Assembly (NCBI GenBank): GCA_046350655.1
Contig: JAXMAB010000004.1
Coordinates: 25,343 to 89,342, forward strand
DNA length: 64,000 bases
Origin: Planctomycetota bacterium
GTDB lineage: Bacteria > Planctomycetota > PLA2 > JAEUHO01
Direction: 5' to 3'
How positions within the stretch are numbered: position 1 is the first letter of the stretch; each line of letters opens with the position of its first letter. Below the pieces are notes generated by a model, which worked only from the letters and a program-made list of their open reading frames with translations, was not told where the DNA came from and made no database searches. This document shows, piece by piece, positions 36,016 to 58,432 of the stretch. Both the position numbers and the translations under genes were made by a program.

Positions 36016-36036
36016 GCAGCCTCCGAAGGTAAGAGC

Positions 36037-39494: not shown

Positions 39495-39957
39495 CACCGT
39501 CGTCTGGGCCCTCGTCCTGCACCCGCGTCCGAGCGAGGTCCATGCGCGCCTCCTCGATGCTCATCCCCGCAGCGCGGAGGACTTCCCCCGCGATCCCTTC
39601 GTCGCCCAGGAGCCCCAGGAAGACGTGCGCGACATCAATCCGTGGCTCGCGCAAGAGCTGCGCCTCCGCCAGGGATGCCTCCAGCACGCGCTTGACGGAG
39701 GGCGTGACGGGCAGTCCCCCCGGGGAGACCGCTTCGGAGCCGCGGTGCGCTCGCGCGAGGATGGTGTCGCGAATCGTTGCGCCGTCCATCCCCTTGCGGG
39801 CAAGCAGATCCCGGAGGCGCGTGCTCGGGTGCTCCACGCACGCGATCAAGATGTGCTCCGGGGTGACGCAGGGGATGCCCAGCGCTCTGGCGGCATCCAT
39901 CGCTCTGTGCAGGAGACGCGGCCCACCTTGCTCAGGCGCCTTGGACATGGGCCCCAT
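39481..39957 (-). CDS. Clp amino-terminal (Clp_N) domain protein.
   Basis: Two Clp_N-like repeats (PEHILIACVEH..., AHVFLGLLGDEGIAGEVL). Start at 39957 or 39948. Confidence 0.5.
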   Translation of the reverse strand: MGPMSKAPEQGGPRLLHRAMDAARALGIPCVTPEHILIACVEHPSTRLRDLLARKGMDGATIRDTILARAHRGSEAVSPGGLPVTPSVKRVLEASLAEAQLLREPRIDVAHVFLGLLGDEGIAGEVLRAAGMSIEEARMDLARTRVQDEGPDDGATHE

Positions 39958-40006
39958 TCTACGGGTCGACACGGCGGCACCTTCCGGCCCGCGGAGATCG
40001 CCTAAC

Positions 40007-40510
40007 GTGGGCACCCGTGGACCCTCCCCGACGCCGACGCGGCTGCTCCAGCTGCGCGGCTCCTGGCGCGCGAAGCAGCGCGTGAACGAACCCCGGCCCC
40101 GGCGCACGCGTCCGCGGCCGCCGGCGACGCTCGGGGCCGAGGCGAAGAAGGGGTTCCTCTCCCTCGTGCGCCAGCTCTACGCCCAGCACGTCGTCGTGGG
40201 GCTCGACGCCCAGTCGCTCGCGCGCTACGCGGACCTCCTCGTCGACTACTGGAAGGCCGCCGAGTTCGTCGCGAAGCACGGCGCCGTCTACGTCGTGCGG
40301 GGGAAGCCAGCACGGGAGGGCGAGCAGGGCCCCGCGATCGGCTTCCGTCCCTACCCGCAGATGGCGCTCAAGATCGCGCTGGCCTCCGAACTCCTGCGCC
40401 TGGAGCGCGAGTTCGGGCTGACCCCCTCGGCCCGCGCCCGGGTCGAGGTCGAGGCGCCCGTGCCCGCGGAGCCGGCCTTCCACTACTTCGACGCGACGGA
40501 GGTCGGATGA
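40007..40510 (+). CDS. Phage terminase small subunit, P27 family.
   Basis: GTG at 40007. C-terminal LEREFGLTPSARARV matches my recollection of the P27-family signature. Confidence 0.6.
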   Translation: MGTRGPSPTPTRLLQLRGSWRAKQRVNEPRPRRTRPRPPATLGAEAKKGFLSLVRQLYAQHVVVGLDAQSLARYADLLVDYWKAAEFVAKHGAVYVVRGKPAREGEQGPAIGFRPYPQMALKIALASELLRLEREFGLTPSARARVEVEAPVPAEPAFHYFDATEVG

Positions 40511-41044
40511 CCGGGTCCCGCAAGACCCCGGCGCGGGGGGCGAAGGCCCCCGTCGCGGCGTGGAAGGACGCCGCGCTCGAGCGGGTCTGCCGCACGGGGA
40601 TCCCGGGCTACGACCCGTGGGCGGCCGCGGGGGCGGGCCACCGCTTCGACGTCAGGCGCGCCCGTCGCGCGATCGGCTTCTTCCACGACATGCTCGTCTT
40701 CGTCGAGGGCGAGCGCGCGGGGGAGCCGTTCGAGCTCGAGCCCTGGCAGGCGGCGATCGTGGGGAACCTCTTCGGTTGGGTCGAGAGGAAGCCCGGACTT
40801 CCGCTGGTACCCGAAGCAGGGGACCGTCGTCGGCTACGTGAACGGCGTCGCCGCCGGCGTCGCGAGCGTGGACACGGACGCGCGGACGATCACGTTCGCG
40901 GCGGCGCCGGGGGTGGGGGCCACTGTGAAGGCGACCTACCGGGGCCTACGCCTCGTCCGCCTCTCGGATCCGCCCTCGTTCCAGGGCGTCACGAAGCGCT
41001 TCGGGCAGTACGAACTCGCGCTCGAGGAGGTCCTGCGCGACTGA
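40507..41044 (+). pseudogene. Phage terminase large-subunit N-terminal fragment (about 95 aa) joined, out of frame, to the C-terminal tail (about 80 aa) of another phage protein. Deletion scar.
   Basis: FELEPWQAAIVGNLFGW is the conserved terminase-large N-terminal motif. After about 40795 the frame turns to junk, while another frame encodes ...GYVNGVAAGVASVDTDARTITF...GQYELALEEVLRD*. Confidence 0.5.
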
Positions 41045-41140
41045 CCGTCCCCGGTGGGGTCTCCCCGCGGTATGCTGTCGGCGTAACAGTTCCGAAGGGC
41101 AGTCCTCTCCAGCGGGCCGCCCCTCCACACGGAGGTCCTC

Positions 41141-41470
41141 ATGCGCCCGCTGGTCCTGCTCCTCGCTCTCGTCGCACTCCTGCTCCCCGCCTGCCAGGCC
41201 GGCTCCGGTCCGTCCAGCACGCTGGAGGTCCAGCCCGCGGTCGGCGCGGGGGCGCGCGTCTTCGCCGGCCCCGAGGACGGAGTCGGTGCCGCCGCTCGCC
41301 TCGACCTCGGGAAGTACGGCTTTCGCACGGGCAAGGCGGCCGAGCCGGCCCCCGCGGCCGCGCCGTCCGCCACCCCCGAGGAGTGCCCCAGCGGCATGTG
41401 CCCCGTGCCGAAGGCGGACCCACTGCGCGTCCCCGAGGCGCCCGCCCCCGACGCCGGGAGGCGGCCGTGA
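41141..41470 (+). CDS. Small Pro/Ala-rich lipoprotein with 4 Cys. Resembles an o-spanin.
   Basis: RBS ggagg. Lipobox LLPAC. Stop overlaps the next gene's GTG (GTGA). Confidence 0.45.
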   Translation: MRPLVLLLALVALLLPACQAGSGPSSTLEVQPAVGAGARVFAGPEDGVGAAARLDLGKYGFRTGKAAEPAPAAAPSATPEECPSGMCPVPKADPLRVPEAPAPDAGRRP

Positions 41471-42225
41471 GCGCCCTGCGTGGAGCCCTCACCTCGCGCT
41501 ACGCGGGGTGGGCCGCGGTCCTCCTGGCGGGCCTGGCGGCGTGCCAGGGCGTCGAGTTTGGCGTCGGGGTGAAGCCTGCGGTCCCCCCGCCGGACCCGGC
41601 GGTCGTGAAGCAGGTCGAGGACGCGAAGGTCGCCGTCGGCGAGGCCGAGCGGAAGGCGAAGGAGGCGGGGCAGCTCGCGGCGGAGGCGGAGGCCGCGCGC
41701 GCGGCGGCTGCCGCCACGGCCGCAGAGCTCGAGCGCAGGGTCGCCGCCGGCGAGGCCACCCAGGCGGACCTCGAGCAGGCCCGGCGACGCGCCACGGAGG
41801 CCGCGACCGAGGCGACCCAGGCGAGGGAGCGCGCCGACCGCGCCCGCGCGTGGACCGACGACTTCTCGGCGCGCGTCACGGCGGCGAACGACCGCCTCGC
41901 GAAGGCCGAGGCGGCGTGGCGCGACGCCGCGGGCGCCGGGCTCAACGCCGAGGGCCCGAAGGACACGACGCCGTGGGGACTCCTCTCCTGGGCGATCAGC
42001 ACGGGGCTCCTCGTGGTGCTCAACGAGAGGCGCAAGCGCGAGGCGAAGGCCGTGCTGGACGCCGCGAAGCAGGAGAGCGCGGACGTCGTCGCGCGCCAGG
42101 ACGACGCCCCGTTCGTGGGCAGCGGCGGGAAGCTCGAGCCCGAGCATCGCCTGGCCGACACGCCCTCCCGTCTCGACGCCGTCGAGGCCGCGCTGTCGGC
42201 CGCGGGCGTGCTGAAGCGGCCGTGA
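41467..42225 (+). CDS. Coiled-coil protein with a lipobox (LAAC) and a C-terminal TM.
   Basis: GTG at 41467. Ala/Glu/Arg-rich heptads, then WGLLSWAISTGLLVVL. Confidence 0.45.
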   Translation: MSALRGALTSRYAGWAAVLLAGLAACQGVEFGVGVKPAVPPPDPAVVKQVEDAKVAVGEAERKAKEAGQLAAEAEAARAAAAATAAELERRVAAGEATQADLEQARRRATEAATEATQARERADRARAWTDDFSARVTAANDRLAKAEAAWRDAAGAGLNAEGPKDTTPWGLLSWAISTGLLVVLNERRKREAKAVLDAAKQESADVVARQDDAPFVGSGGKLEPEHRLADTPSRLDAVEAALSAAGVLKRP

Positions 42226-42506
42226 CCCACGACCGTGGCCCCCGCTTCGCCCCTGCAGAGTCCGACGACCCGACTCGTCGGCTCCGCCGCCTCGAGGACT
42301 GGGCCGGCCGCCACGACCAGTGGTCGGCCCAGACCGCGGTCGAGGGGCACGAGAAGGTGGTCCGCGTGGAGGAGCGCGTGACGGTCCTCGAGGGCAAGGT
42401 CGTGAGGCTCTTCGCGTCGGTCGGCGAGCACCGGCTCAAGTGGGGGATCGTGGCGTGGGTCGTCGGGACGGCGACGGCGGCGGCGATCGCCATGCTGGCC
42501 CGCTAG
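42222..42506 (+). CDS. Small protein with a C-terminal TM (WGIVAWVVGTATAAAIAMLA).
   Basis: GTG at 42222 overlapping the upstream stop (GTGA). Confidence 0.4.
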   Translation: MTHDRGPRFAPAESDDPTRRLRRLEDWAGRHDQWSAQTAVEGHEKVVRVEERVTVLEGKVVRLFASVGEHRLKWGIVAWVVGTATAAAIAMLAR

Positions 42507-42581
42507 GATTGACGGACCACCGCAGGTCGTAACGTGTCGCGAGCGGGCACCGCCTGATCGAGGCGCCGTCGGGAGCTGAAC

Positions 42582-44768
42582 ATGATCCTCCGCTACTCGT
42601 GTCGAGGTCGCCGTCGGTTCACTCTCGGGGCTGCGCGGCGAGACTCAAGATGGGTGGCGGCGATCGCGCTCGCACTCCTGGTGAGCCCCGTATGGGCGGA
42701 GGACCCGCCGGCCGACCCCGAAGTCTCGTCTTACCCGCTCGTGTTCCGGTCCGACGATCGCAAGGATGTGGTTGCCACCACGGTGCTCGACGGCCGAACG
42801 GGCCGCCCAATCCGCGGAGCTATCGTGCGCGGCTACGCCGAGGGTGTGAGCGGCAGGGCGGCGGCCGTGAATGCCCTGGTCTGCTCGCTCACGACGGACG
42901 AACAGGGGATCGCGTCGGCCCGACTCGACACGGAGGCCCTGGGGTGCAGCCACTGGACGGTCACGGCCCCTGGCTATCGACCCTACGCGGAGTTCCATGG
43001 GTACTGGCCCCCAACGCGCGTGCTGCTTAAGCCCGGCACGCCGATGGCGGTCCGAGTTCTGGACGCCATGGGCCGCTCTGTCGTCGATGTAGCCGTCGAA
43101 GGGTACGAGGGCTGCCCGCACGCGCCGGCGGCGGTGCGCGGCCGGACTGACGCGAACGGCATCTTCCGCGTCGAGGACGGCTCTGCCCGGGGATACGAAC
43201 TGTGGGTCGAGGCGGCCGGCTGCGCACGCCGGCCGGAATCGCTCCAGGCCGTGTTCGGCGACACGCCTGACACTTGCCTACTGCGCCCGGGGATCGATGT
43301 GCGGGGGCGTCTAACGGACGTCGACGGCCGACCGATCCACGGCGCGGTCGTCCGTGGCACTGGCTACCCGCGCGGTCCCGCTACGCTGACGGACAGCGAC
43401 GGCCGCTTCGTGCTCTCGGGACTAGGCGTGGAAGATGGGGTCCAGGTCTTCCACCCGACGCTTGCCGTGGAGGGAGAGACGACCCACATGGTCCGTCGCG
43501 TCGCGGCGGACGCGCCGCTCGACCTTGTGTGGACGGTGGAAGGCCTGGCGCTTCCCCCGGCGCGCGGCACTCTCGTCATTGCAGCGCGAGACGGCAAGGG
43601 GGCGCCGGGATCGGGACTCCACCTTCTCGTGATCGGGCGCGACGGTCGGTGCTATCCCGCGGCGACGGACGACAGCGGGGCCGCATCCCTCGAGGTCCCG
43701 TGTGGCGAGGTTCGCGTCCGTGGCGACAGCCCGTTCGACCCGTACGAGGTCGCGGAGACGACCGCTGTCGTGCGCCAGGCGGAGACCTCGCGGGTCGATC
43801 TCGCGTTTACCGCGCGCCCGCGTTTTCAGATCGAGGGCGGCGTGGCGCCCGATGTCGATGCGAGCCTCGCGGCGGCGGGCCGGGTCTACGACGGCGATCT
43901 GCTCCCGACCGACAAGGGTGCGCCCCCGCCAGTCTGGTTGCCCGCGGACGCGCCCGCCGTACTCCGACTGTCTGCCGAGCAGGAGACATCCTGGTCCTTC
44001 CAGGAAGTCGGGCCGGTCGTGGACGGCGTGCGGACCGTGAAGGTGCGGCCGCGGCCTGCCCATCGCGTTCGCATCGCACCGGACGATCGCCTCGACGGCG
44101 CCTGGGTCTTCGTGACCTCGGACGGTGGGTCCGGGGAGGGGCGCCCGTACGATGTCGTCCACGGGGTCATTTCGTTCTTTCGCGGGGGCCGATTCCGAAT
44201 CGTGGTGGATACGGAGGGGGACTCGCCCGCGCGAGTCGTGTCGCTGGAGCTCCCCCCGCTCGCGCAGGGAGCCATCGAACGGTCAGTCGATCTCGCGAAG
44301 GAAGGGCAGATCGACCATCTCAGTGGCACGGCGAGGCTCCTCGTCACGATGGCCGACGGCAAGGCTGTTCCCGAGATGAAAGTCTCGGGCGACAGGTTCT
44401 CAGTGGACGGGGCAGAGTCCCCAGTCGAGGTCTCGGCGCCCGACTCCGTCCTCCTCGCGCCCGTGGGGCTCCAGCCGCTCCAGGTCTTCGTCCCGCGCGC
44501 TGGCGACCAGAAGGTCCTGTTCCCGACCGGAGGCATCGACCTCTCGACGACGGATGCCGCGGGCGCTCCAGTCACGGTTTCCGTCCTGATCGACGGGGTT
44601 GAACACCGCGCCGCTGAGGGACACCTGGCGCTGCGCGGCCTCGCCGCTGGCGCTCACGCAGTGATTGTCCAGCGTGAGTCGTGGCCGCCCCGCGTTCCCG
44701 AGAGTCGCATTTGGCGGTTCACTCTCGCCGACGGCGAGGTGCGGGCGAAAACTCTCCCTCTTCCGTGA
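42582..44768 (+). CDS. Secreted protein with carboxypeptidase-regulatory-like domains (728 aa).
   Basis: Signal WVAAIALALLVSPVWAEDP. Motifs TDANGIFRV and TDSDGRFVLSGL. Confidence 0.55.
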   Translation: MILRYSCRGRRRFTLGAARRDSRWVAAIALALLVSPVWAEDPPADPEVSSYPLVFRSDDRKDVVATTVLDGRTGRPIRGAIVRGYAEGVSGRAAAVNALVCSLTTDEQGIASARLDTEALGCSHWTVTAPGYRPYAEFHGYWPPTRVLLKPGTPMAVRVLDAMGRSVVDVAVEGYEGCPHAPAAVRGRTDANGIFRVEDGSARGYELWVEAAGCARRPESLQAVFGDTPDTCLLRPGIDVRGRLTDVDGRPIHGAVVRGTGYPRGPATLTDSDGRFVLSGLGVEDGVQVFHPTLAVEGETTHMVRRVAADAPLDLVWTVEGLALPPARGTLVIAARDGKGAPGSGLHLLVIGRDGRCYPAATDDSGAASLEVPCGEVRVRGDSPFDPYEVAETTAVVRQAETSRVDLAFTARPRFQIEGGVAPDVDASLAAAGRVYDGDLLPTDKGAPPPVWLPADAPAVLRLSAEQETSWSFQEVGPVVDGVRTVKVRPRPAHRVRIAPDDRLDGAWVFVTSDGGSGEGRPYDVVHGVISFFRGGRFRIVVDTEGDSPARVVSLELPPLAQGAIERSVDLAKEGQIDHLSGTARLLVTMADGKAVPEMKVSGDRFSVDGAESPVEVSAPDSVLLAPVGLQPLQVFVPRAGDQKVLFPTGGIDLSTTDAAGAPVTVSVLIDGVEHRAAEGHLALRGLAAGAHAVIVQRESWPPRVPESRIWRFTLADGEVRAKTLPLP

Positions 44769-44792
44769 CCCCCTGGCCCGCGGACGAGTCCA

Positions 44793-45895
44793 CTACGCGA
44801 GCACCTTCCCGACCGCGGCCCGCCGCCGTTCCGACGTCGAGTGGGCGTAGCGCATCGTCATGGCGGCCGTCTTGTGGCGCATGAGGTCCTGGACCGTCCG
44901 CAGGTCCACGCCCTTCGCGAGGAGGGCCGTCGCGAAGGAGTGCCGCAGTGTGTGCCAGCCGATCGCGGGGAAGTCCCGATCGCCGGCGTCCCAGTCCGCC
45001 CGGGCGCGGACGAGCGCCTCGCGCTTCCTCGTGCAGCCGCTCGCGGGGTCGGCCAGGTACTTCGCGACGCGGAGCTTCAGGTGGACGCGCCGGCAGAAGC
45101 GGTGGAGCCCCGTGTAGGCGGCGCGGATGTGGGGCCCGAGGCGGACGACGGGGCCGGCCACGACCCGGTGGCGCTTCAGGATCTCCATGAGCGGGGGGCT
45201 GATCTCGAGCTTCGCGTCCCGGTGCGTCTTCGTGGCCCGCACGAGCAGCACCTGGCGGTCCCAGTCGATGTCCGAGGTCTGCAGGCCGTAGAACTCGGCG
45301 CGGCGAAGGCCGGCGAGCGCGGCGAGCGCCACCGGGGGCTCCCACTTCGTGCCGCGGACCGCCTCGAGGAGGAGGGCGACCTGCTCGGGCTCAAGGTGCT
45401 TGGGCTCCTCCTGCTGGATCGTCGGGCAACGGAAGTCGCCGACGAAGTCGGGGCAGGCGACCCCGCTCCCCTCGGCGCCGGCCCAGCGGATGAACCGGCG
45501 GCACTCGCCGACGAACATCTGGATCGACCGGGGGCCCCAGCCGTGTGGTCCGCCACGTAGCGGACGAAGAGCGCCCGGGTCCACTGGTGCATCGGTGTGG
45601 AGGCCCATGCTCCGAAGAGCGGCTCGAGCCTGGCGCGGCACATCTCGATCGTGGCCGGCCGGGCCCCGAGACGCTTCTCGTCGAGGTAGGTGTCGAGAGC
45701 GTCCGTGGCGCTCTTGAGCGCCGGGTTGTTGTGGCGCGCGCCGTGAGAGCGTTCGAAGGCGCGCAGGTAGGTCTTCGCGATCGCCTCGTTGTCGGTCTTG
45801 AGTCCCTTGCTGTGGACGTTCCCGAGCTCGTCGCGCCACTGCAGGTAGGCGAGACGCTGGCCCTTGAGCGTCTCGCGCCATCGGATCCAGGCCAT
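44793..45895 (-). pseudogene. Tyrosine integrase (phage-integrase family), frameshifted near 45535 in a G/C homopolymer run.
   Basis: N-terminal arm/SAM-like part in one frame (MAWIRWRETLKGQRLAYLQW...). Catalytic domain (R..HxLRHSFAT..LMRH...Y) in another frame. About 115 bp from tRNA-Ser. Confidence 0.65.
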
Positions 45896-46009
45896 GTAAG
45901 GCTCCTCTGCTGACGTGGATTTGCTGACGTGGGCCCTTGAGAGCCCTTGTAGCGCGCATGGGGGACGCCCCGGGAAGCCGCGTAAGTCCGCGGCACATCG
46001 GGGTTTGTA

Positions 46010-46101
<92 letters not shown>

Positions 46102-46315
46102 GAAGAGGTCGCGGCGTTATACCCCGGGCCGCCCGCCGCGCCATGTCGCGCACCCAGGTTCACCGGCCCTGCGCCCCCATCGTCGCCCCCCGGGCCGGGC
46201 GCCCCGTCCCGCCGCCCGTCGCCGGAGGGCCCTGCGAGTAGAACGGAGCCGCAGGGACGGGACGCCCGCGGCGGCATCGATGCGACGCCGGATCCCGCCC
46301 GCCGAGGGGGTCCCG

Positions 46316-47542
46316 ATGCTCGTCCGTCGCGCGCTCGAAGCAGTCCTGCTCCTCGGGTGCCTCGCGGCCGGCCCGCGCCCCGCGTCGGCCTGCTGCATGG
46401 TCCCGACGAGCTGGAAGGGCGACGTGGACCAGGCCGACCAGCACGGCGTCGTGCTCCACCACGACGGGCACGAGGAGCTCATCGTCCGCGTCGCACCGTT
46501 CTTCCAGACGACGGACCGCACCCCGCTCGCCGCCGACGCCCCTCCGCCGCCCGCGCTCGAGTGGGTCGTCACCGTCCCCACGCCGCCCACGAGCTACGGC
46601 CTCGTCCCCGCCTCGGTCTTCACCGACGTGGCCGCGCTCGTGAGCCGACTGCAACGCCTCGCGGCCGAGCAGCACGAAGCCCGCACGCGCTGGGAGGTGC
46701 CGCTCCTCAAGACGTACAGCCTCGGCGCCTCCGCTCCCTCGGCCGGCACCTGGGACGCCCTCGACGTCGGCCCGCGCGTCCGCGTCGGCCCGTACGAGAT
46801 CACGCCCGTCAAGGCGCGCGGCCGCGAAGCCCTCGACACGCTCAACCGCTACCTCGCCGAACGCGGCTTCCCCGAGGAGACCCCCGACCACATGGCGTGG
46901 TTCGTCGAGCGCGGGTTCACGTTCCTCTGCATCCACATCACGCCGCCCGCCGGCGCGGCCCACCTCGGCGAACGCCTCGACCTCGAGCCCCTGCGCATCG
47001 GCTTCGCCACGGATCGGCCGTACTACCCCGCCAAGTTCTCGAGCCGACAGGGCGACTTCGCGCTCTCCCTCGCCGTCCTCAGTTCGCGCCCCGTCGCGAA
47101 GCCGTCCCTCGCCCGCATCGGCGACCGGTTGCGCGCCGGCCGGTCCACCGCCAACCTCTTCACCGTCGCCACGCCGCCCGCGTCGCTCGCGAGCGCCGTG
47201 CCGTCCGGCGTGGACCGCTGGTACGTCAACGCGTTCCGCTCGAAGGGCGTCAACCCGTTCGACGACGGCGGCCGACCCGCGATCTCCTCGTGGACCGACG
47301 ACGTCTTCTTCGACCTCGGCGGCGACGCCGACGCGCCGCCCGGGTGGTACTACGGCGACCGCGACCTCTGGATCGCCGAACGGGTCGTCCGCGAGCACGG
47401 CATCGCGATCGCGGTCTGGGGCGTGCTCGGCGCCGGGATCGCGGTCACGTTCCGCCGACGCAAGGCCCGCTCGCGATCGGCCGCCGGGCCTCGCGGTCCG
47501 GGCGCGAACTCCGTCGAGGCGGGAGACGTCTCCCGACGTTGA
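46316..47542 (+). CDS. Secreted protein with a C-terminal TM anchor. Possibly DUF2330-like.
   Basis: Signal MLVRRALEAVLLLGCLAAGPRPASA. C-terminal IAIAVWGVLGAGIAVTFRRRK. Confidence 0.5.
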   Translation: MLVRRALEAVLLLGCLAAGPRPASACCMVPTSWKGDVDQADQHGVVLHHDGHEELIVRVAPFFQTTDRTPLAADAPPPPALEWVVTVPTPPTSYGLVPASVFTDVAALVSRLQRLAAEQHEARTRWEVPLLKTYSLGASAPSAGTWDALDVGPRVRVGPYEITPVKARGREALDTLNRYLAERGFPEETPDHMAWFVERGFTFLCIHITPPAGAAHLGERLDLEPLRIGFATDRPYYPAKFSSRQGDFALSLAVLSSRPVAKPSLARIGDRLRAGRSTANLFTVATPPASLASAVPSGVDRWYVNAFRSKGVNPFDDGGRPAISSWTDDVFFDLGGDADAPPGWYYGDRDLWIAERVVREHGIAIAVWGVLGAGIAVTFRRRKARSRSAAGPRGPGANSVEAGDVSRR

Positions 47543-47549
47543 GAACGGG

Positions 47550-48377
47550 GTGAGGCTCCGGGTCGCCGTCGCCGCCTTCCTGTCGCTCGCGGCCTGCACC
47601 GGCCCGCGCGGGGCACGCGTGCGCGCGCCGTTCGTCGATCCCGACGTCGGCCGGCCGCCGACGCTCGCGGACCGCCAGCGCGGGCGCGGCGTCGCGCCCG
47701 GCGACGAACGGGGCCCCGGCGGGTTCGTGCCGCGGCGCGAGGCGAAGTCGTTCTACTCCGCGGGCGGCGGCCGCCTCTGGTACTACCTCAACACGTACTA
47801 CTGGGCGCCGACGGCGCTCGAGACCGACGACCTCTGGATCTTCGCCGACGTCGTCGAGCGGTTCACCGACCTGCGCCGCTGGACCGACGGTGCGCCGGAG
47901 CCGGTGCCCGCGTCGCGGCGGCCCGCGCCGAAGCACACGACCGAGTACTGGCAGGTCGGCCGCACCGGCCGCGCCATCTCGCTCGACAACCACAAGGACT
48001 TCTGCCTCCTCGACGACGACCTCTGCACCGGCGCGATCGAGGTGACCGTCACGCTGACGCTCGGGAGGCTGCGCGTGCGCGGGCCCGACGGGACGTGGGG
48101 CCGATCGAAGCAACCGTACGTCCTCGAGTTCCGCGACTACGGCGACGGGCGCGGGCTCGGCGCCGCGAACGCCCGCTTCACGCCGCTCGACGACGAGCCC
48201 ACGACGACGTGGACGTACCGCGTGCCGTGGTCGTCGCTACCCGGCCGCATGACGCGGAGCACGTGGGAGGAGCTGCGCGTGCCGACGTGGACGCTCGTCG
48301 AGCGTCGTCCGTCCCGCCGTCCCACCGACGACGCCGCGCCCGGCGCCACCGCTCCCGTCACGACGACCGACGACTGA
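47550..48377 (+). CDS. Lipoprotein (LAAC). Hypothetical.
   Basis: GTG at 47550. Tyr/Trp-rich mature domain. Confidence 0.5.
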   Translation: MRLRVAVAAFLSLAACTGPRGARVRAPFVDPDVGRPPTLADRQRGRGVAPGDERGPGGFVPRREAKSFYSAGGGRLWYYLNTYYWAPTALETDDLWIFADVVERFTDLRRWTDGAPEPVPASRRPAPKHTTEYWQVGRTGRAISLDNHKDFCLLDDDLCTGAIEVTVTLTLGRLRVRGPDGTWGRSKQPYVLEFRDYGDGRGLGAANARFTPLDDEPTTTWTYRVPWSSLPGRMTRSTWEELRVPTWTLVERRPSRRPTDDAAPGATAPVTTTDD

Positions 48378-48477
48378 CGAATCGGTCCACCGACACGGGT
48401 CGTCGATCGGCGGGTCGTGGTTCGGCGGACGGGCGCGTCCGTCGGCCACCGGGCCTCGCGTGCCCCGGGGTCGCCGT

Positions 48478-48562
48478 CCGATCCGCCAATCAACGCCGGT
48501 CGATGATGGGCGGATCCGCCAATAAACGCCGGTCGATTATTGGCGGATGCCGATCGTGGGCG
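48478..48562. repeat. Two tandem copies of a 31-bp palindromic element, CCGCCAAT-N15-ATTGGCGG.
   Basis: ccgccaatcaacgccggtcgatgatgggcgg and ccgccaataaacgccggtcgattattggcgg in a convergent intergenic region. Confidence 0.6.
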
Positions 48563-48565
48563 GGC

Positions 48566-51500
48566 CTACTTCGAGGGCGTCGGGGCGGGCGCCTCGTCGG
48601 AGCGGACGTCGGTCAGGGTGAGCGTGAGCGTGGTGCTCGTCGTGTCGTTGCGCGTGCGGTCGGAGGGCAGCGCGGGCATCGGGATCGACACCGAGCCGCC
48701 GGGCGCGAGCGACGCGCGGAACGGCCGCGAGACCTCGCGCATCACGGGCAGCTCGACGTTCATGGGGGTGCCCACCCCGAAGTCCCAGGGCCGCGTCCGC
48801 ACGGGCGTGTCGGGCGCCATCCGCAGGAACCGCCCCTCGACGACGTGCATGCCGCCGGCCTCCGGGCGCACGGTCGCCTCGACGACGAGCCCGTACGGGA
48901 GCGACTGCACGATCGGGTCCACGAGCCACGCGCCGGGCCGCCCCGACACCTCCGCGCCCGCGATGTACGGCACCTGGTGCACGATCGAGATCGTCGCGGT
49001 CTGCCCCTCGAACACGCGCACCGTCGGCGACTGGAGCTTCCGCTCCTGCCCGCCCTGCTGCGCGGTCCACACCGCCTCCAGCGTCGCGACCCGCGGCGCC
49101 GCGGGCGGCTTCGGCTCCGCCGTCACCCGCGTCCAGCCGCGCGCCACCGGCGCCGCCGCGCCCCGCGTCGCGCGCACGCGCACCGCGAGGTCGCTGTCGC
49201 CGAGCCGCTCCGTCGCCACCATGCCCTCCGCGGGCACGGGCCACGCCGTCTCGAGCTGCCGCTGCACCAGCGCGGGCAGCTCGACCCCGGCCCGCGGCCC
49301 GCGCGGCGCGACGCCCGGCGGCGGCGCCGCGTCCACGCCGAACGACGCCGCGACCGACAGGTGCACCTGCGGGTCGCTGCCCGCGCCGCCCTCGCCGACG
49401 CTGGCCACGAGCCCGATCCCGTCGGCCCACGTCCGCACGACGGGCGCGAGCGGCCGGCCCGCGGCCTTCGCCGCGCCGGCCTCCGGCGTCTCGAGGTACG
49501 CGTGCCGCACGTGCCGCCACGCCGCGACGCTGCGGTTGTGCGGCACCTCGAGCGTGTACGTCGCGATCGGCGCGCCCGCGCCCGCGCGCACCACCTCCAC
49601 GTCGAGCCGCACGACCGGCCCGCCCGTCGTCGCGAGGCGGTCGAGCGCGCGCTCCACCGCGTCGAACCGGCGGCTCGGCACGCACACGACCACCGTCGTC
49701 GGCGCACCGGCCGGCGTCCCGCCCGCGCGCGCGAGCGCGAAGCCGTCCTCGACCTCCGTCCGCAGCTCGTGCGCGATGCGCGCCGCGCGACGGCTCACCG
49801 CCGGCGCCGGCGTGGACCCGTCGGGCGCGAGCGACGTCGCCGGCGCGTCCTTGGCGAACGCCGGCGGCGGCGTCGCGTCGTCGCCGTGCGCCAGCGCGGC
49901 CGACAGGTCGTAGACCCGCAGCACGTCCGGCGCGAGCGTCGCGAGCTCCGCCGGCGTCAGCATCAGGAACCCCGCCTCCGACGCGTCGACGAGGCCGCGC
50001 ACCGCGGCGGCCTGCTCGCGCGCCGGCGCGCCGCGCACGGCGGCGAGCGCCGCGTCGTCCGGTCGGGTCGACACTCGGGGGCTCGGGGACGCAAGGCCCG
50101 CTCGCCGTTCGAGCTCGGCGACGACCGCCTTCGTGGACGGAGCCTCGTACGTCACGGTCACGAGCGGCGCGCCGCCGACGTCGCGCGCCGTCTCCGATGC
50201 GCCCGGCGCGAGCCGGAAGCGGAAGGGTCGACTCACCGCGCGCGCGACCGGCAGCTCGATTCGCTCCGACCGCGTCTCGGGCTTCGGCATCGTCCGCGGG
50301 CTCGGGTCGGTCGTCCTCCACGTCACGACGACGTCCACCACGCGGCTCCCGTCCGCGGCCGGCGCGTCGCATCGGGCGGTCACGTCGATCCGGTCGCCGT
50401 CCGGACGGTCCGCCAGCGTCAGCGTCGCCTCCTGGCCCGCGAGCGATGACATCGCTGCCCGCAGCGGCGCGCGGCCCGCGTTCGCCTCCACCGTGAACGT
50501 GAACGACGCCACGCGCGCGTCCACGATCCCCGCCGGCGGCGCGCCCGGCGCGACGCGGGCCCACCCGCGCGCCGCCGGCGTCGTCGCCGTCGGCGTGACC
50601 TCGACGATCGCGAACGTGTCCGCCGTGCCCAGCCGCAGCAGCAGCGTGCGGGCCCGGCCGTCGTCGGGGACGCCGACCGATCCCCGGACGAGCTCGAGCT
50701 TCGGGACCTCGATCGTGACGGCCTCCGTTCCCCGCCCGGCGAGCGACGTCGAGAAGGTCGGCAGCGGCGTCGGCGCGCGCAGGTGCTTCACGTCCACGCG
50801 CAGCGCGCGCCCGCCGTCCGTCGCGACGTCCACCACGGCCGTCGCGCCGACGCCTTCGCGGAGTACGCCGACGATCGGCTCCACGACGTTGTCGTTCCCG
50901 ACCTCGACGTCGTAGTCCTTCACGTACGAACGGTCGAACGCGCGCCACGCCGTCGCGCGCCGGCCCGCCGGCGTGGGCAGCGCGAAGTGCGCGATCCGGG
51001 CCGAGGCGCGATCGGCGGCCGACATGGACGCAAGGCCCGTGGCATCGCGCGACGCACCCGCGGCCAGCGCCCGCAGGCCGAGGCGGTCGGCCCACGCGGC
51101 CGACTCGAGCACGTCCACCGCCACCGCGTACCCGCGACCGCCCACGGTCGCGACGCGCTCGAGCGCGGCCTCGGCGCGCGTGAGGTCGTCGGGCCCGCCG
51201 AGCACGACGACGCAGGCGTGGGGGGCCAGCGGGTCGTGCGGGGCCGCGGTCGGCGTCCACACGTCGACGAACGTCGGCGCCGCGATGGTCGGCGGCTTCA
51301 CGCAGTCGGCGACCGCGCCGCCGATCCGCGTGGCGCGTCGCACGACCGCGGCGGCCGGCGTCGGCTCGACGACGGGCCACGTCGCTTCCGGCACGTCCGG
51401 GAACGTCCACCACGCGGGGAACGCGCCGTCGCCCCCCGACGCGAGCGCGCCCGCGAGGTCGTAGACCCGCAGCACGTCCGGCGCGAGCGACGCCAACGCG

Positions 51501-51793
51501 CCTGCGTCGAGCGAGAGGAGCGCATCGCGCGACGTCTTGTGCATCGCGAGCAGGGCGGTGCGCTGCTTCGTCGGGTCGGTCTCGGCGTGGACGGCGGCCA
51601 ACTCCTTGGCGAGGGCGGCGGCCGGGCCTTGCGTCGGCGGAACGAAGTCCGCGTCCCTCGCCGCTCCGGGCGCGGGGGCGGGCGCGACCGCCGGCGGGGG
51701 CGCGGGGGGCGTGTCGTCGGCGTGTGCTCGTGCGACCAGCGCACCCGCGGCGACCAGGACCGACAACCCGAGCGACGGACGGCGGATCGACAT
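48566..51793 (-). CDS. Large secreted protein (about 1075 aa) made of two homologous modules of about 480 aa.
   Basis: Signal MSIRRPSLGLSVLVAAGALVARAHA. Duplicated segments (ALASLAPDVLRVYDLAGALA / ELATLAPDVLRVYDLSAALA, and others). Confidence 0.55.
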   Translation of the reverse strand: MSIRRPSLGLSVLVAAGALVARAHADDTPPAPPPAVAPAPAPGAARDADFVPPTQGPAAALAKELAAVHAETDPTKQRTALLAMHKTSRDALLSLDAGALASLAPDVLRVYDLAGALASGGDGAFPAWWTFPDVPEATWPVVEPTPAAAVVRRATRIGGAVADCVKPPTIAAPTFVDVWTPTAAPHDPLAPHACVVVLGGPDDLTRAEAALERVATVGGRGYAVAVDVLESAAWADRLGLRALAAGASRDATGLASMSAADRASARIAHFALPTPAGRRATAWRAFDRSYVKDYDVEVGNDNVVEPIVGVLREGVGATAVVDVATDGGRALRVDVKHLRAPTPLPTFSTSLAGRGTEAVTIEVPKLELVRGSVGVPDDGRARTLLLRLGTADTFAIVEVTPTATTPAARGWARVAPGAPPAGIVDARVASFTFTVEANAGRAPLRAAMSSLAGQEATLTLADRPDGDRIDVTARCDAPAADGSRVVDVVVTWRTTDPSPRTMPKPETRSERIELPVARAVSRPFRFRLAPGASETARDVGGAPLVTVTYEAPSTKAVVAELERRAGLASPSPRVSTRPDDAALAAVRGAPAREQAAAVRGLVDASEAGFLMLTPAELATLAPDVLRVYDLSAALAHGDDATPPPAFAKDAPATSLAPDGSTPAPAVSRRAARIAHELRTEVEDGFALARAGGTPAGAPTTVVVCVPSRRFDAVERALDRLATTGGPVVRLDVEVVRAGAGAPIATYTLEVPHNRSVAAWRHVRHAYLETPEAGAAKAAGRPLAPVVRTWADGIGLVASVGEGGAGSDPQVHLSVAASFGVDAAPPPGVAPRGPRAGVELPALVQRQLETAWPVPAEGMVATERLGDSDLAVRVRATRGAAAPVARGWTRVTAEPKPPAAPRVATLEAVWTAQQGGQERKLQSPTVRVFEGQTATISIVHQVPYIAGAEVSGRPGAWLVDPIVQSLPYGLVVEATVRPEAGGMHVVEGRFLRMAPDTPVRTRPWDFGVGTPMNVELPVMREVSRPFRASLAPGGSVSIPMPALPSDRTRNDTTSTTLTLTLTDVRSDEAPAPTPSK

Positions 51794-52073
51794 GACTCCC
51801 TCCCAGGGCGGCGGGAGCATGGTGCGGTGCCGTCACCCCGGGGTCACTCCCCGGTCACCGATCTTCCGTGCCGGCGACCTGGCACCCGCGGGTCCGGCTG
51901 CCGGTTCGCCCCGTGGGCCCTCGCCCTCCGCTCCGACGCGGCAGTCCCGGGAGTGCGGGATCGCACGGTGCGGACCGATCCCTGGGGTGGGGGGCGTCAT
52001 GCGCCGTTGTCGCCCAGGGGGGCGGGCGGCTATCCTCGCCCCGCTCGATGGTCGGCGTCACGGAGGGTCACGG

Positions 52074-54482
52074 ATGACGGCTCGGATCGGACGGCGGTTC
52101 GCCACAGCCCCCGCGCTCGCCTTCGTCTCCTTGGCTGCGCTCGTCGCGAGCCTCGGTGTTCCCTCGGTTTTCGCCGACGACCCGCCGCCGCCGGCCGCGC
52201 CCGCGGTTCCCGCGCCGCCGCCGATCCCGCCCGCCCCGCCGGAGGCCGGCACCGCGACGTCGACGATGGTTCCCCCGCCCCCGAACGGGCCCACGGTCCC
52301 GCCCCCGACCCCCGCCCCGACCGACGCTCCGACGTCCGCGCCCGCGTTGCCGGCGCCGTCGGGCCCGAACGTCCCCGTCGCGACGACCGAGATCCGTCCC
52401 CGGCCGCCGGCCCCGCCGCCGCCCGAGATGGACATGCCGACGTGGGACCTCTTCTACAAGTCCCGTGGCGTGTGCCTGCCGCCGCCGCCCCCGCCGCCGG
52501 ACCCGTTCGAGTGCCGGCCCATCGACCTGCGGCCGGACCGGCTCGTGTCGGCGGACCAGCGCGTGAAGGAGGTGCGGCGCGTCCCGCAGTGGGTCGACGT
52601 CGTGCGCCGACAGGACGTGACGGAGTGGCGTCCGCTCGGGCTCGGCGACCTGATGCGGCGCTTCCCGAACGTGATGATCGGCGACGGCGGCAGCCCGTTC
52701 CAGGCGCTGCCGATCATCCGTGGCCTCGGCGGCGACCGCGTGCGGATCATGACGGACGGCGTCTGGCCGTCGACGCAGGCGCTCGGGCCGTTCGGCAGCA
52801 CGCTCGGCCTGTGGGACCCGGAGACGGCGGAGCGCGTCGAGGTCTATCACGGGCCCGGCGCGTACCTGCGCGGCGCGGAGGCCGGCGGCGGCGTCATCAA
52901 CGTCGTGCCGCGGCGCCCGCACCGGCACGAGTGCCTGTCGGACGCGTGGCTCGAGGAGTCGACGGCGTACCGCTCGGCCGACAACGCGTTCCGCCAGCGC
53001 GTGGGCGCCGACTTCGGGCAGGGGCGCGTCGCGGGCCTCGTCGGGGCGACGTACGAGAACCACGACGACCGCGAGACGGCCGACGGCACGCTCGACCCGT
53101 CGTCGTACGAGTGGCTCGGCGTGGACGCGGCCGTCGACTACTTCCTCGACAACCAGTCCACGCTCGGCTTCACGGGCCAGTACGTGAAGGCCAAGGACAT
53201 CAAGAGCCCGATCGGCGGCGGCGACCTGCTCACGCAGCCCGAGTACGAGCGCCTGTTCCTCGGCATGACGCTGTCGTCGCTCGACATGGGCACGTACTTC
53301 CACGGCGCGCGCGCGACGGTCACGTTCGACTCGTTCGTGCAGCAGGACGACGCGCAGACGAACCTCTCGCTGACCGACGGCATCTCGGCGAAGGACGACG
53401 TCAAGCGCTTCGACTTCCACCTCGCGGGCAACCTCTACCTCTGGGACTGCCACGACACGTGGGCCGAGGTGTCGGTCGGGTACGCGCACCTCGAGCGCAC
53501 CGAGGCCATCCTCTGCCTCAACCTCGTCGACACGGACCACGTCGAGGCGGTGAAGAACCTCGGCATCTTCACGAACGCGGTCCCCGGCACCTGCGTGGAC
53601 GGCGTCGCGACGCTGCAGGCCGAGGAGATCCGCGTGAAGGCCCTCATCGAGGACGAGTGGCACTCGGCCTGCTGGGACTTCCACGCGGGCGCGCGCATCG
53701 ACGTGCAGTACCTCGACGACGACCGCACGGGCGAGGACACGCTCGAGGTCATCGGCGGCGTCGCGGGCGGCGTCGCGCGGCACCTCTCGACCTGCTGGAC
53801 CGTGTACGGCAACGGCTCGTTCGGCCAGCGCTTCCCGAGCATCCACGAGCTCTACAGCGTCTCGATCCTCGACGGCGTGACGGTCTTCGGCAACCCGGAC
53901 CTCGACCCCGAGACCGCGTGGAACGTCGAGGTCGGCTTCAAGTACGGCAGCGACAACCACTCGACGGCCCAGCTCGCCGGCTTCGTCCACGGCATCGACG
54001 ACTTCATCGGGCGGCGCGCCGTGGGCGCCGACGAGCTCTGGGACTCGCTCGGCGACGTCCTGCTGGCGGGCGTCGAGGCGACGGGCTCGTGGCGGCCGAA
54101 CGGGTGCTGCTGCGAGGGCCTCGAGTTCTTCGGCATGCTCGGCAGCACCTGGAGCGACGACGAGGACATCGTCGCGAGCGTGCCGTTCCACGGCCGCGTG
54201 GGCGCGCGGCTCTCGACCAACTACGGCCCGGGCTGCGGCCTGCGGCGCTGGTTCGTCGAGGCGTCGGCCCGCGGCGCCGCCGAGAGCGGCTTCCGCGCGG
54301 ACGACGACGCGTTCGTCACGTCCGAGCTGCTCGCCGGCGCGAGCTTCGGCTTCGGCGGTCGCCGCGTCGGCACGCTGACGATCGGCGGCGTGAACCTGTT
54401 CGACGAGGCCTACACCGAGCCCTTCGCGCGCCTGCCCGCCCACGGCCGCAGCCTGATCGCGTCGCTCTCCTTCGACTTCTGA
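52074..54482 (+). CDS. TonB-dependent outer-membrane receptor with a Pro-rich N-terminal extension.
   Basis: ATG at 52074. Signal sequence. Plug motifs (RFPNVMIGDGGSPFQALPIIRGLGGDRVRIMTDG). C-terminal ...SLSFDF with terminal Phe. Confidence 0.7.
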   Translation: MTARIGRRFATAPALAFVSLAALVASLGVPSVFADDPPPPAAPAVPAPPPIPPAPPEAGTATSTMVPPPPNGPTVPPPTPAPTDAPTSAPALPAPSGPNVPVATTEIRPRPPAPPPPEMDMPTWDLFYKSRGVCLPPPPPPPDPFECRPIDLRPDRLVSADQRVKEVRRVPQWVDVVRRQDVTEWRPLGLGDLMRRFPNVMIGDGGSPFQALPIIRGLGGDRVRIMTDGVWPSTQALGPFGSTLGLWDPETAERVEVYHGPGAYLRGAEAGGGVINVVPRRPHRHECLSDAWLEESTAYRSADNAFRQRVGADFGQGRVAGLVGATYENHDDRETADGTLDPSSYEWLGVDAAVDYFLDNQSTLGFTGQYVKAKDIKSPIGGGDLLTQPEYERLFLGMTLSSLDMGTYFHGARATVTFDSFVQQDDAQTNLSLTDGISAKDDVKRFDFHLAGNLYLWDCHDTWAEVSVGYAHLERTEAILCLNLVDTDHVEAVKNLGIFTNAVPGTCVDGVATLQAEEIRVKALIEDEWHSACWDFHAGARIDVQYLDDDRTGEDTLEVIGGVAGGVARHLSTCWTVYGNGSFGQRFPSIHELYSVSILDGVTVFGNPDLDPETAWNVEVGFKYGSDNHSTAQLAGFVHGIDDFIGRRAVGADELWDSLGDVLLAGVEATGSWRPNGCCCEGLEFFGMLGSTWSDDEDIVASVPFHGRVGARLSTNYGPGCGLRRWFVEASARGAAESGFRADDDAFVTSELLAGASFGFGGRRVGTLTIGGVNLFDEAYTEPFARLPAHGRSLIASLSFDF

Positions 54483-54544
54483 CGCGCGATCCCCTCTCCG
54501 GTACGCGAGGCCCGGCGGCCGGCGGGCCTCGCGTCCCGTGGATC

Positions 54545-54640
54545 GCCGATCCGCCAATATGTGCCGGTCGATTACTGGCGGATTCTCCCCCGGTCGAATC
54601 CGCCAATCCGTGCCGGTCGAATATTGGCGGGTCGAATGTC
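54545..54640. repeat. Second cluster of the 31-bp CCGCCAAT..ATTGGCGG palindromic element: 2 full copies plus partial arms.
   Basis: ccgccaatatgtgccggtcgattactggcgg and ccgccaatccgtgccggtcgaatattggcgg, between the TonB receptor stop and the next gene. Confidence 0.6.
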
Positions 54641-54727
54641 GGCGGATGCGCGTCGTCGTGGCGTGATCCGCGGAGCGGCGGGGGACCGCGCGTCCCGGCG
54701 CCGCGGCCGGGGCTATGCTCGGAGACG

Positions 54728-56399: not shown

Positions 56400-57950
56400 G
56401 AGGGATGAGCGGCGCCGGGGGCTGAACGATTTTCGGTGGCCGGTTGGGGGCGATGGATGCGACCCGGGCGCGGCGCGGAGGCGACGACCGCGTGTTCCTG
56501 CACCACATGGGATGAGAGGCAGGTCCCCCTGACGGGGTAGCCCATCAGGGCCCCCCAGGTGCCAACGGCGAGCTCGCGGGGCGGCTCAACTACGGAGGAC
56601 CTGCCATGGACGACACTAGCACCGTGGCGGTGGAGGTGACATTGGGCGTGGACCTGGGTGACCGGGTGTCCTACGCCTGCGCCCTCGACCAGCGGACCGG
56701 CCACGTACTGGAGCGATTCCGGGTCGCCTCGACGCGCGAGGCGTTCCTGGGGGTCTTCGTCCCTCGGTGTCCGACCCGGCTGGTGGTGGAGGCCGGGACC
56801 CACTCGGGCTGGGCCAGTCGCCTCCTTCGCGCCGCGGGATACGACGTGATCGTGGCCAACCCTCGACGGGTGCGCCTGATCGGGTCGAGTCGGCGCAAGA
56901 GCGACCGGATGGACGCGGAGTTGCTGGCGCGCCTGGGGCGGGCCGACCCGAAGTTGCTCTTCCCGATCCGGCACCGCGACGCGCAGCACCACGAGCACTT
57001 GGCGGTGTTGCGTTCTCGCAGGCTCCTCGTCGAGAAGCGATCCGCCCTGATCTGCCACGTTCGCGGCACCCTGAAGGCGATGGGTGAGCGCGCGCCGACG
57101 ACCTCCACGGAAGCGTTCCCGCGTCGGGTTCGTGAGGCGGTCTGCGAGGAGAGCGTGCGCATGCTCGAGCCTATCCTCCAAACGCTGGACGGGCTGACCG
57201 AGACGATCCGCAGCTACGACGACACGATCGAACGTCTGGGTGCGGAGACCTACCCCGTGACCCGCCGGCTCCAACTCATCGAGGGCGTCGGACCGCTCAC
57301 GGCCTTGGCCTTCGTACTGGTCGTGGAGGACCCGTTCCGATTCGCGCACGCCCGGTCCGTGGGAGCCTTCGTCGGGCTCTGCCCGGGCCTAAGCCAGTCG
57401 GGCGACATCAACCCACAACTCCCCATCACCAAGACCGGGGACCAGATGCTGCGCTGCCTGCTCGTCGGAGCCGCGCAGTACATCCTCGGGCCGTTCGCGA
57501 CGGACAGCACCTTGCGCCGCTATGGACAGCGCCTGATGGTCGTGGGCGGCCGGGCGGCCAAGAAGCGCGCCGTGGTGGCGGTGGCGCGCAAGCTCGCCGT
57601 GCTGCTGCTCCACCTCTGGCGTCACCCGGACGAGACCTACGACGCGTTGTACGACGCCCCACCGCTTCCGGCGCTGGGGACCCTGGACCCGAACTCGACC
57701 ACGGAGGACCCTGCATGAGCCATGGCTCGGGCTGCCGCCGGCGGCGCGCCCGCCCCTGACCGGGACGGCCCCCTCCCCGCGCCCGACATGCCGATCCCGG
57801 GCGACTGCGTCCTTGGCGTTGAGCGTCCTTCGAGGCTCAGACCTTGCCGGACAGCTCGTGTACCACCTTCGCAGCGCCCCCCTTCATGCGGAACCCAGCA
57901 TGCACCACCCCGGTGACCCGGGACGAGTGCGGATAGAACCAAGGCGGAAG
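56400..57950 (+). mobile_element. Solitary IS110-family insertion sequence. Boundaries are approximate; this family typically lacks terminal inverted repeats.
   Basis: Transposase CDS flanked by non-coding sequence with an imperfect hairpin at about 56520-56555. Confidence 0.45.
56606..57718 (+). CDS. IS110-family transposase (DEDD).
   Basis: N-terminal DEDD region (GVDLGDRVSYACA). C-terminal LIEGVGPLTALAFVLVVEDPFRFAHARSVGAFVGLCPGLSQSG motif. Confidence 0.7.
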   Translation: MDDTSTVAVEVTLGVDLGDRVSYACALDQRTGHVLERFRVASTREAFLGVFVPRCPTRLVVEAGTHSGWASRLLRAAGYDVIVANPRRVRLIGSSRRKSDRMDAELLARLGRADPKLLFPIRHRDAQHHEHLAVLRSRRLLVEKRSALICHVRGTLKAMGERAPTTSTEAFPRRVREAVCEESVRMLEPILQTLDGLTETIRSYDDTIERLGAETYPVTRRLQLIEGVGPLTALAFVLVVEDPFRFAHARSVGAFVGLCPGLSQSGDINPQLPITKTGDQMLRCLLVGAAQYILGPFATDSTLRRYGQRLMVVGGRAAKKRAVVAVARKLAVLLLHLWRHPDETYDALYDAPPLPALGTLDPNSTTEDPA

Positions 57951-58432
57951 GGTCAGGGCGGCGGGGCTGGAACCGGAAGGCAAGGCGCTACCGCCACGGC
58001 GTCCGCGCAGAAATTCTCTTGCTGCCTCTCATAGAACGCCGAGGAGCCTCCGCGCCGTGGCCCACGCGTTCGTTCCCGCCGGCGGCGCTGCGATACGCCC
58101 GGGTCGCAGCCGCGGCCCCAACCTCGTCCCCTCGTGCATGGGCCGGGCTCGGCCCGGTGGCCGTCGCGCCCCCCGGAAATCGGGGACACCTAACGAGTCG
58201 TTCGGTACCGAAGTAAGGCAATTGTTTGGTAGTTGTTCGGTTTCGGGTCGGGCGCCGTCCCCGGTCGCGGTGCGGCGTCGGCGCGGGCCCAACGGTCCCG
58301 GCGCGGGCCGCGGATCCGTCCGGGCCCGGTACACTTCGCCCCTTTCCGGGCCTGCCGTGGGGGGCCTGGACGCCTCATCCCGGGCGCGTCGCGCCTGGGA
58401 CCCACCGGACCCCGCGGACGAGGACCTCGAAG

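Follow-up and report, generated by a model that had tools for sequence, protein, structure and literature searches.

Palindromic elements at the secreted protein and receptor locus

We analyzed a 64,000-nucleotide window of a Planctomycetota bacterium genome (assembly GCA_046350655.1, contig JAXMAB010000004.1, positions 25,343 to 89,342; GC content about 75%), in which two clusters of short palindromes flank a divergent pair of genes for a large secreted protein and a TonB-dependent receptor. Genes were placed from codon-position GC profiles together with open reading frame (ORF) maps. The profiles confirm the preliminary description of the region in that both clusters are intergenic; each is found at the 3' end of one gene of the divergent pair. 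Cluster 1 is framed by the convergent stop codons at 48377 and 48566, and cluster 2 occupies part of the gap from the receptor stop (54482) to the start of the following gene (54728). No element was detected in the divergent promoter gap (51794-52073) by either hidden Markov model (HMM) or regular expression search.

A search for the pattern CCGCCAAT-N15-ATTGGCGG, allowing up to two mismatches, returned four copies in the window, each with zero or one mismatch, all in one orientation and in two clusters (Table 1). The number of copies expected by chance is 0.01 and none of 100 shuffles reached four, which agrees with the earlier count of at least four copies. All six ATTGGCGG octamers in the window fall inside these copies, and an HMM for the whole superfamily found no further copy in the window. 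The conserved core that had been noted is also present: the asymmetric sequence GCCGGTCGA is on the plus strand in 4/4 copies. The palindrome had been described as a 31-bp unit with perfect arms of 8-10 bp. Inverted arms are indeed present, with 8-12 bp of perfect complementarity in copies 2 and 4, but copies 1 and 3 each have one mismatch, and the conserved unit is 37 bp long, with the form GATCCGCCAAT-nnnn-GCCGGTCG-wnnr-TTGGCGGATC. It consists of three near-invariant blocks and two free 4-nt spacers.

The copies are arranged head-to-tail. Copies 1 and 2 overlap by a common GATC, creating a tandem with a period of 33 bp as measured with Tandem Repeats Finder (TRF), and extra 15-bp degenerate right-half units (GTCG-N6-GGCGG) flank the full copies in both clusters. 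An identical short-read contig from Logan (L128; such labels denote individual contigs and loci throughout) terminates inside copy 1, as expected of a repeat. Rfam contains no RNA family matching either cluster, a tRNA-Ser being the sole match; no family copy was found in viral contigs, and a literature search with the arm strings returned nothing beyond primer noise.

Table 1. Features of the locus, with further sites of the 11-mer CGGGCCTCGCG and of the sister hairpins
Feature	Position	Strand	Remarks
Gene, 275 aa	47550..48377	+	No Pfam match; frame plot; stop 103 bp upstream of copy 1
Two tandem 15-bp right-half units	48399..48428	+	GTCGTCGATCGGCGG, GTCGTGGTTCGGCGG; regular expression; TRF period 15 x 2.2 at 48396-48428
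B motif	48449..48469	+	CCGGGCCTCGCGTGCCCCGGG; small GC hairpin; precedes cluster 1
Family A copy 1	48480..48516	+	GATCCGCCAATCAACGCCGGTCGATGATGGGCGGATC; pattern match 48483-48513; fold -18.7 kcal/mol, z = -3.2
Family A copy 2	48513..48549	+	Pattern match 48516-48546; 12-bp perfect stem; fold -18.1 kcal/mol, z = -4.0
Degenerate right-half unit	48549..48563	+	GCCGATCGTGGGCGG; ends 2 nt short of the minus-strand gene's stop codon
Gene, 1075-aa protein	48566..51793	-	Signal-peptide-like N terminus; no Pfam family; cluster 1 at 3' end
Divergent promoter gap, 280 bp	51794..52073	.	Without any element
TonB-dependent receptor, 802 aa	52074..54482	+	Plug and beta-barrel domains; cluster 2 at 3' end
Complete B hairpin	54499..54538	.	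CGGTACGCGAGGCCCGGCGG/CCGGCGGGCCTCGCGTCCCG; 17 nt after receptor stop; inverted repeat I19, 90% complementary
Family A copy 3	54548..54584	+	Pattern match 54551-54581; pattern, alignment, folding
Family A copy 4	54597..54633	+	Pattern match 54600-54630; pattern, alignment, folding
Extra 15-bp right-half unit	54631..54646	+	GTCGAATGTCGGCGGA; regular expression; TRF period 15 x 2.1 at 54615-54645
Ureidogly_lyase/B3_4 protein, 391 aa	54728..55903	+	Next gene after receptor
CGGGCCTCGCG, example sites	946-975, 5199, 8359-8388, 14774, 21611/21667, 48450, 54504-54533, 62643, 63572		
C1 and C2 hairpins	L016:2060-2160, L072:3230-3330 and 6100-6450, L112:4800-4910, L117:1190-1300, L122:1-270		AGACGCGCCATTnGGTGCCGGACACCGnTTGGCGCGTCT (C1), GGTTCCGCCATTTGGTGCCGGTCCCAnnCTGGCGGAACC (C2)

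The units form hairpins whose arms covary

A gap-free alignment of 21 copies was made from those in the window and those at nine other loci. Across all 21, variation is concentrated in the two 4-nt spacers, and the three blocks are near-invariant. Conservation extends to the right arm and to the GAT/ATC ends, neither of which was included in the search patterns. Spacer positions 12 and 26 pair in 8/21 copies, compared to about nine expected. As the spacers pair no more than chance, extension of the stem into them was rejected and the stem comprises the outer 9-12 bp. Folding energies of single 37-bp units range from -12 to -20 kcal/mol (z = -1.6 to -4.8), and each unit has complementary outer arms of 9-11 bp and an invariant block at the apex (GCCGGTCG in the subfamily found in the window, which we call A). 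When cluster 2 is folded in full, z is -6.2, and pairings between copies appear as alternatives.

Related loci contain two sister subfamilies, C1 (AGACGCGCCA...TGCCGGACACC...TGGCGCGTCT) and C2 (GGTTCCGCCA...TGCCGGTCCC...TGGCGGAACC), mixed with A and built on a common 27-nt skeleton. The C1 and C2 hairpins have longer stems and small CCGG-containing loops. While all three subfamilies keep the skeleton CGCCA..GCCGG.C..GGCG, their outer arms change compensatorily (GATC/GATC, AGACG/CGTCT and GGTTC/GAACC). In an alignment of 31 sequences the inner arms and GCCGG are invariant, and 82% of arm cells are paired, compared to 21-46% when the partner is slid along the alignment. Cells changed on both sides number 32 (18 in shuffles), a value reached by none of 500 shuffles. 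These compensatory changes in the arms show that the hairpin is under selection. Among arm mismatches, G.T and A.C are equally frequent (13 vs 17), which gives no hint that one transcribed strand has been under selection. Chimeric copies, whose left and right arms come from different subfamilies, are present as well. Altogether the superfamily has at least 31 copies in 10 loci.

Copies are dispersed at the 3' ends of unrelated genes

We scanned a genome collection with a 17-base pattern and metagenomes with a 19-base pattern. The genome scan gave mostly chance single matches; among the matches listed, true copies occur only in the metagenome-assembled genome (MAG) JAEUHO01 (Planctomycetia), at a minimum of three loci. 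Fifteen metagenome stretches matched, of which eight are true family members (L112, L116, L117, L119, L121, L122 and two with weak right arms), adding six loci. None of the nine related loci is syntenic with the window, and alignment is confined to the repeats. The genes beside these loci are functionally unrelated, encoding CAP, glycogen debranching enzyme, CHAT/TPR, 2-thiouracil desulfurase, Uma2 and thioesterase proteins.

The preliminary description had allowed for a motif scattered at random, coding DNA included. This is not the pattern observed: besides the excess over chance in the window, all 15 clusters, those at orthologous loci included, are intergenic by GC3-based gene calls. Seven lie in convergent gaps, two or three in co-directional gaps, four at a contig end 3' of a gene and one at a contig end 5' of a gene. 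Where both neighbors are known (10 clusters), 7/10 are convergent and no divergent placement was confirmed. Clusters sit 40-120 bp past stop codons. The orientation of the elements relative to the upstream gene is mixed; within each locus, all units point in the same direction.

A second motif accompanies the palindromes

Both clusters are directly preceded, in fixed polarity, by a second motif, B, built around the 11-mer CGGGCCTCGCG. It occurs 27 times in the window (1.4 expected), more often than any other 11-mer, and it ties for the top rank in the relative L129. Approximately 18 of the 27 sites are intergenic, often straight after stop codons. No copy occurs between 24.0 and 47.4 kb of the window, and none was found in L136, a relative with 57% receptor identity. 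Perfect hairpins of the form CGCGAGGCCCG-N8-CGGGCCTCGCG are found at three sites in the window. The B hairpin at 54499-54538 has an 11-bp stem, which is the dominant stem in the fold of cluster 2, and has sister hairpins at 940-981 and 8359-8388.

The association extends beyond the window. The B-linker-A composite of cluster 1 shares 89% identity over 74 bp with locus L072. At related loci, A, C1 and C2 units form periodic mosaics together with interspersed B motifs, and a 92-bp composite of B and C1 is repeated three times at L072:6100-6450. Units, half-units and the CGGGCCTCGCG hairpin build head-to-tail arrays just downstream of genes. The CGGGCCTCGCG motif itself may be REP-like (resembling repetitive extragenic palindromes, REPs), terminator-like or uptake-signal-like.

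Arrays are gained and lost between close relatives

Syntenic contigs were reached through the closest homologues of the receptor, and the identities given here are amino acid identities of that protein. In the window, the 245-bp gap after the receptor gene contains the B hairpin, two A copies and one half-unit. A relative at 95% identity (L132) has a differently built array in the gap after the receptor, consisting of the B hairpin, A, a 21-nt spacer, A' and a half-unit. At 90% identity (L129, L130 and L131) the gap is 61 bp long and has only half of the B motif, with no A element. The corresponding gaps of L135 (75%, 76 bp) and L133 (69%, 64 bp) contain no element, and neither a superfamily element nor the B motif was found in the 22.5 kb searched in L136 (57%).

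From the tRNA gene to the window end, L129 and the window are collinear, except that L129 does not have an IS110 insertion sequence (IS) copy or a 1.36-kb segment (46225-47587). Where the window has cluster 1, L129 has a gap of 88 bp that contains a single diverged superfamily element, CCGCCCAAAGGTGCCGGTCGCGAAATGGCGGG. As the outgroups are empty, gain of the array in the lineage of the window and L132 is the parsimonious reading. The family has spread to unrelated intergenic sites, and its members are gained, lost and changed in copy number between close relatives.

A probable lineage-specific family of REP-like hairpins

The dispersal of the elements, their bias to 3' ends and convergent gaps, the covariation of their arms, the subfamilies, the mosaics, the restriction to one lineage and the turnover between relatives at 90-95% identity all suggest that the palindromes are a lineage-specific superfamily of dispersed extragenic hairpins, of the selfish-repeat type, resembling REPs and bacterial interspersed mosaic elements (BIMEs). 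We put the probability of this interpretation at about 0.68. The "REP/MITE-like" reading in the preliminary description is borne out by dispersal, hairpins and variable presence at orthologous sites. The elements are not miniature inverted-repeat transposable elements (MITEs) as such, since neither a target-site duplication nor, in the window, a parent IS was found.

In such a family, the units would be spread by an enzyme that acts in trans and recognizes the hairpin in single-stranded DNA, such as a REP-associated tyrosine transposase (RAYT), another HUH transposase of the IS200 type, or an equivalent. Local slippage or recombination between arms could then expand and contract the arrays. 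Any effect on flanking genes, for instance hairpins at 3' ends stabilizing or ending transcripts, would be a by-product.

Several observations weigh against a REP-like family. No mobilizing transposase was found, and a Pfam scan of 29 window proteins detected no RAYT, although 64 kb is too little to expect one and no probe with RAYT sequences was made. The 21 copies have no unpaired terminal GTAG or CGTC tag and no flanking target-site duplication, and the comparison of filled and empty orthologous sites gives no clean cut-and-paste junction or duplication. Every multi-copy cluster or locus is uni-directional and head-to-tail, unlike classical REPs and BIMEs. Only two clusters occur in the 64 kb of the window, and no more than 15 metagenome stretches matched, eight of which are true members. 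The invariance of the core is partly an ascertainment effect, as 15/21 copies were found with a pattern that contains it, and a host DNA-binding protein could explain the conservation in blocks equally well.

A propagation mechanism other than a RAYT, with the A, C1 and C2 hairpins as its substrate, is suggested by the invariant GCCGG apical loop, the strictly head-to-tail arrangement and the constant association with the CGGGCCTCGCG hairpin, but we consider it quite unlikely. One possibility of this kind would be a strand-specific recombinase, acting on single-stranded DNA or guided by RNA, that adds units beside existing ones. In that case the abundant B motif would provide the landing pad in the genome, and the resident IS110 might target it as well.

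Alternative explanations for the palindromes

The preliminary description proposed two roles that tie the clusters to the genes they flank. As operators, the palindromes would bind a dimeric transcription factor controlling the secreted protein and receptor pair, which would suit the two-fold symmetry of the arms (8-11 bp), the block-wise conservation with free spacers and the flanking of one gene pair by two clusters. However, the 280-bp gap that contains the divergent promoters has no site, the clusters are at 3' ends (cluster 1 between two stop codons) and elsewhere the element adjoins unrelated genes. At the same locus in relatives with 90% and 95% identity the sites are missing or different while the genes are conserved, and an invariant asymmetric core of fixed polarity is unexpected for a symmetric dimer site. 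An operator function is therefore very improbable. We find it harder still to credit that the clusters mark the edges of an acquired locus, as att-like or other recombination sites bordering a horizontally acquired 6-kb cassette. Direct-repeat clusters of the same orientation do bracket two genes, and there is a tyrosine recombinase gene on the left at a distance of 2.3 kb, but that integrase is part of a separate tRNA-Ser island (about 32.3-46.0 kb). Moreover, the order of the genes is ancestral in the group and kept in relatives without cluster 2, the elements vary where the genes do not, the GC content of the locus (0.73-0.77) equals that of the rest of the window, the host-specific motif is present within the locus, the family occurs both as tandem copies without intervening genes and at many unrelated loci, and there are no integron-type core sites.

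Two further explanations invoke selection rather than mobility. The elements could be functional RNA hairpins retained at gene ends, either as bidirectional terminators without a U-tract or as mRNA stabilizers. Their position 40-120 bp after stop codons with a preference for convergent gaps, their stable folds (-12 to -20 kcal/mol, and z = -6.2 for cluster 2) and the report of such action for REPs (PMC3733652) all fit, and we regard this explanation as possible, though unlikely. The loop is 15 nt long and not followed by a T-run, a scan for consensus terminators was empty, and ahead of cluster 2 there is already a better hairpin, that of the B motif at 54499-54538. The mixed orientation relative to the upstream gene, despite an asymmetric loop, and the balance of G.T and A.C mismatches also argue against a role in RNA, and orthologous genes manage without the elements. 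Alternatively, they could be genome-wide binding sites, comparable to matS, NBS or parS, for an architectural or segregation-type host protein. Three conserved blocks approximately 13 bp apart with unconstrained spacers, inner arms and loop that are invariant across subfamilies, and uniform orientation within each locus are all consistent with a bound protein. Sites of this kind are nevertheless improbable given the rapid turnover between relatives at 90-95% identity, the strictly intergenic and 3'-end-biased location, and the chimeric and half copies, which are typical of decaying repeats; covariation of the outer arms, moreover, indicates base pairing and not a fixed recognition sequence.

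Comparison with known repeat families

The family resembles REPs and BIMEs in the features described in published accounts: imperfect stem-loop palindromes of 20-40 bp (here a 37-bp unit with a stem of 9-12 bp), an extragenic and mostly downstream location in convergent or co-directional gaps, and co-existing subfamilies with compensatory stem changes that form mosaics, are lineage-specific and vary between strains (PMC3733652; PMC2817692). The preference for convergent and downstream gaps has likewise been published for REPs, as has their action as 3'-end terminators or mRNA stabilizers (PMC3733652). Classical REPs are joined head-to-head or tail-to-tail in dimers, and in BIMEs the orientation alternates (PMC3733652; PMC2817692). 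In contrast, the family described here is head-to-tail, has no GTAG or CGTC tag and has a 15-nt central region with an invariant GCCGG(T/A)C. Because of the missing terminal tag and the head-to-tail arrays, it is, by analogy, classed as an untagged REP-like family and not as a member of the GTAG or CGTC superfamily.

Untagged REP-like families have been described in Mycobacterium tuberculosis, Deinococcus radiodurans, Bordetella, Brucella and cyanobacteria (PMC3733652). These are also short dispersed palindromes with no conserved terminal tetranucleotide and no known dedicated transposase, whereas the host here is an uncultured organism of about 75% GC and no relationship in sequence is apparent. 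In Neisseria, small palindromic dRS3/CGTC-1 repeats are interleaved with other repeat families in large intergenic mosaics (PMC3733652). The B-linker-A, C1 and C2 arrays are similar in being palindromic repeats interleaved with other families, but sequences and organism differ. The dRS3 repeats are tied to phage integration sites, and no link to phage integration was seen here.

MITEs share terminal inverted repeats, a non-coding nature, dispersal and presence/absence polymorphism with the palindromes. However, the units measure only 37 bp, half-units in tandem do not resemble MITEs, none of the 21 copies has a target-site duplication, and no parent IS with matching ends is present in the window, the ends of the IS110 copy being unrelated. 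Three other candidates were rejected. Integron attC sites do not fit, as the elements vary while the bracketed genes stay, tandem copies occur without intervening genes and AAC/GTT core sites are absent. In a CRISPR array, repeats are separated by unique spacers of similar length, whereas these overlap, abut or lie no more than 12 bp apart. Intrinsic terminators were excluded by the 15-nt loop, the absence of a T-run and the finding of 0 terminator-like sites in 47.5-55.5 kb. It should also be noted that a consensus scan for sigma-70 promoters and terminators at the locus found nothing.

While repeats of the REP/BIME-like kind are in themselves ordinary, the head-to-tail polarity, the invariant GCCGG loop and the very abundant 11-mer partner are unusual. 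What is new is a well-defined untagged REP-like superfamily from an uncultured, high-GC lineage that has been little studied; it comprises three subfamilies that covary and is accompanied by a partner motif. Such repeats break short-read assemblies and inflate intergenic regions, and they should not be annotated as operators. The contrast with RAYT-driven REPINs, in the head-to-tail arrangement, the invariant loop and the filled and empty sites, could help to identify the mobilizer of untagged REPs.

Mobile DNA and genes near the locus

A tRNA-Ser(GCT) gene (46010-46099, minus strand) has a tyrosine recombinase gene (44793 to approximately 45900, minus strand) beside its 3' end, and a 62-bp copy of the 3' half of the tRNA is found at approximately 32236-32297. 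The tRNA gene and its partial copy outline an integrated island of about 13.7 kb (window 32236-46099). The island has a lower GC content (0.70-0.72) and carries a fusion of ParB_N and a DNA methylase (38154-39494). A link between the integrase and the palindromes was rejected because the integrase belongs to this island, on the left. Directly beside the tRNA-Ser gene on its other side is the 1.36-kb segment at 46225-47587, which contains a 420-aa gene without a Pfam match (46280-47542). The otherwise collinear L129 does not have this segment; its gap there measures 103 bp.

An insertion sequence of the IS110 family occupies approximately 56458-58061, with a transposase gene at 56606-57718 (plus strand) that encodes DEDD_Tnp_IS110 and Transposase_20 domains. 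Stand-alone contigs of about 1.5 kb with 100% identity in four Logan runs indicate that this IS is multi-copy. It is absent from the orthologous site of L129, where the CGCGAGGCCCG motif follows the stop codon of a 154-aa gene, and it may have landed in or beside that motif. A link to the A elements was rejected, as 2 kb separate the IS from cluster 2 and its insertion site is not an A element.

Exact-protein look-ups with the 1084-aa ORF, the receptor and the 391-aa gene product matched no record; named receptor homologues at 45-48% identity carry Planctomycetota annotation. The large secreted protein gene (48566-51793, compared to L129:1400-4732) aligns in patches with 66-69% nucleotide identity. 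This is below the 84-85% found for the receptor and downstream genes in the same comparison, which suggests, from the alignment, that the secreted protein evolves rapidly or undergoes turnover of internal repeats.

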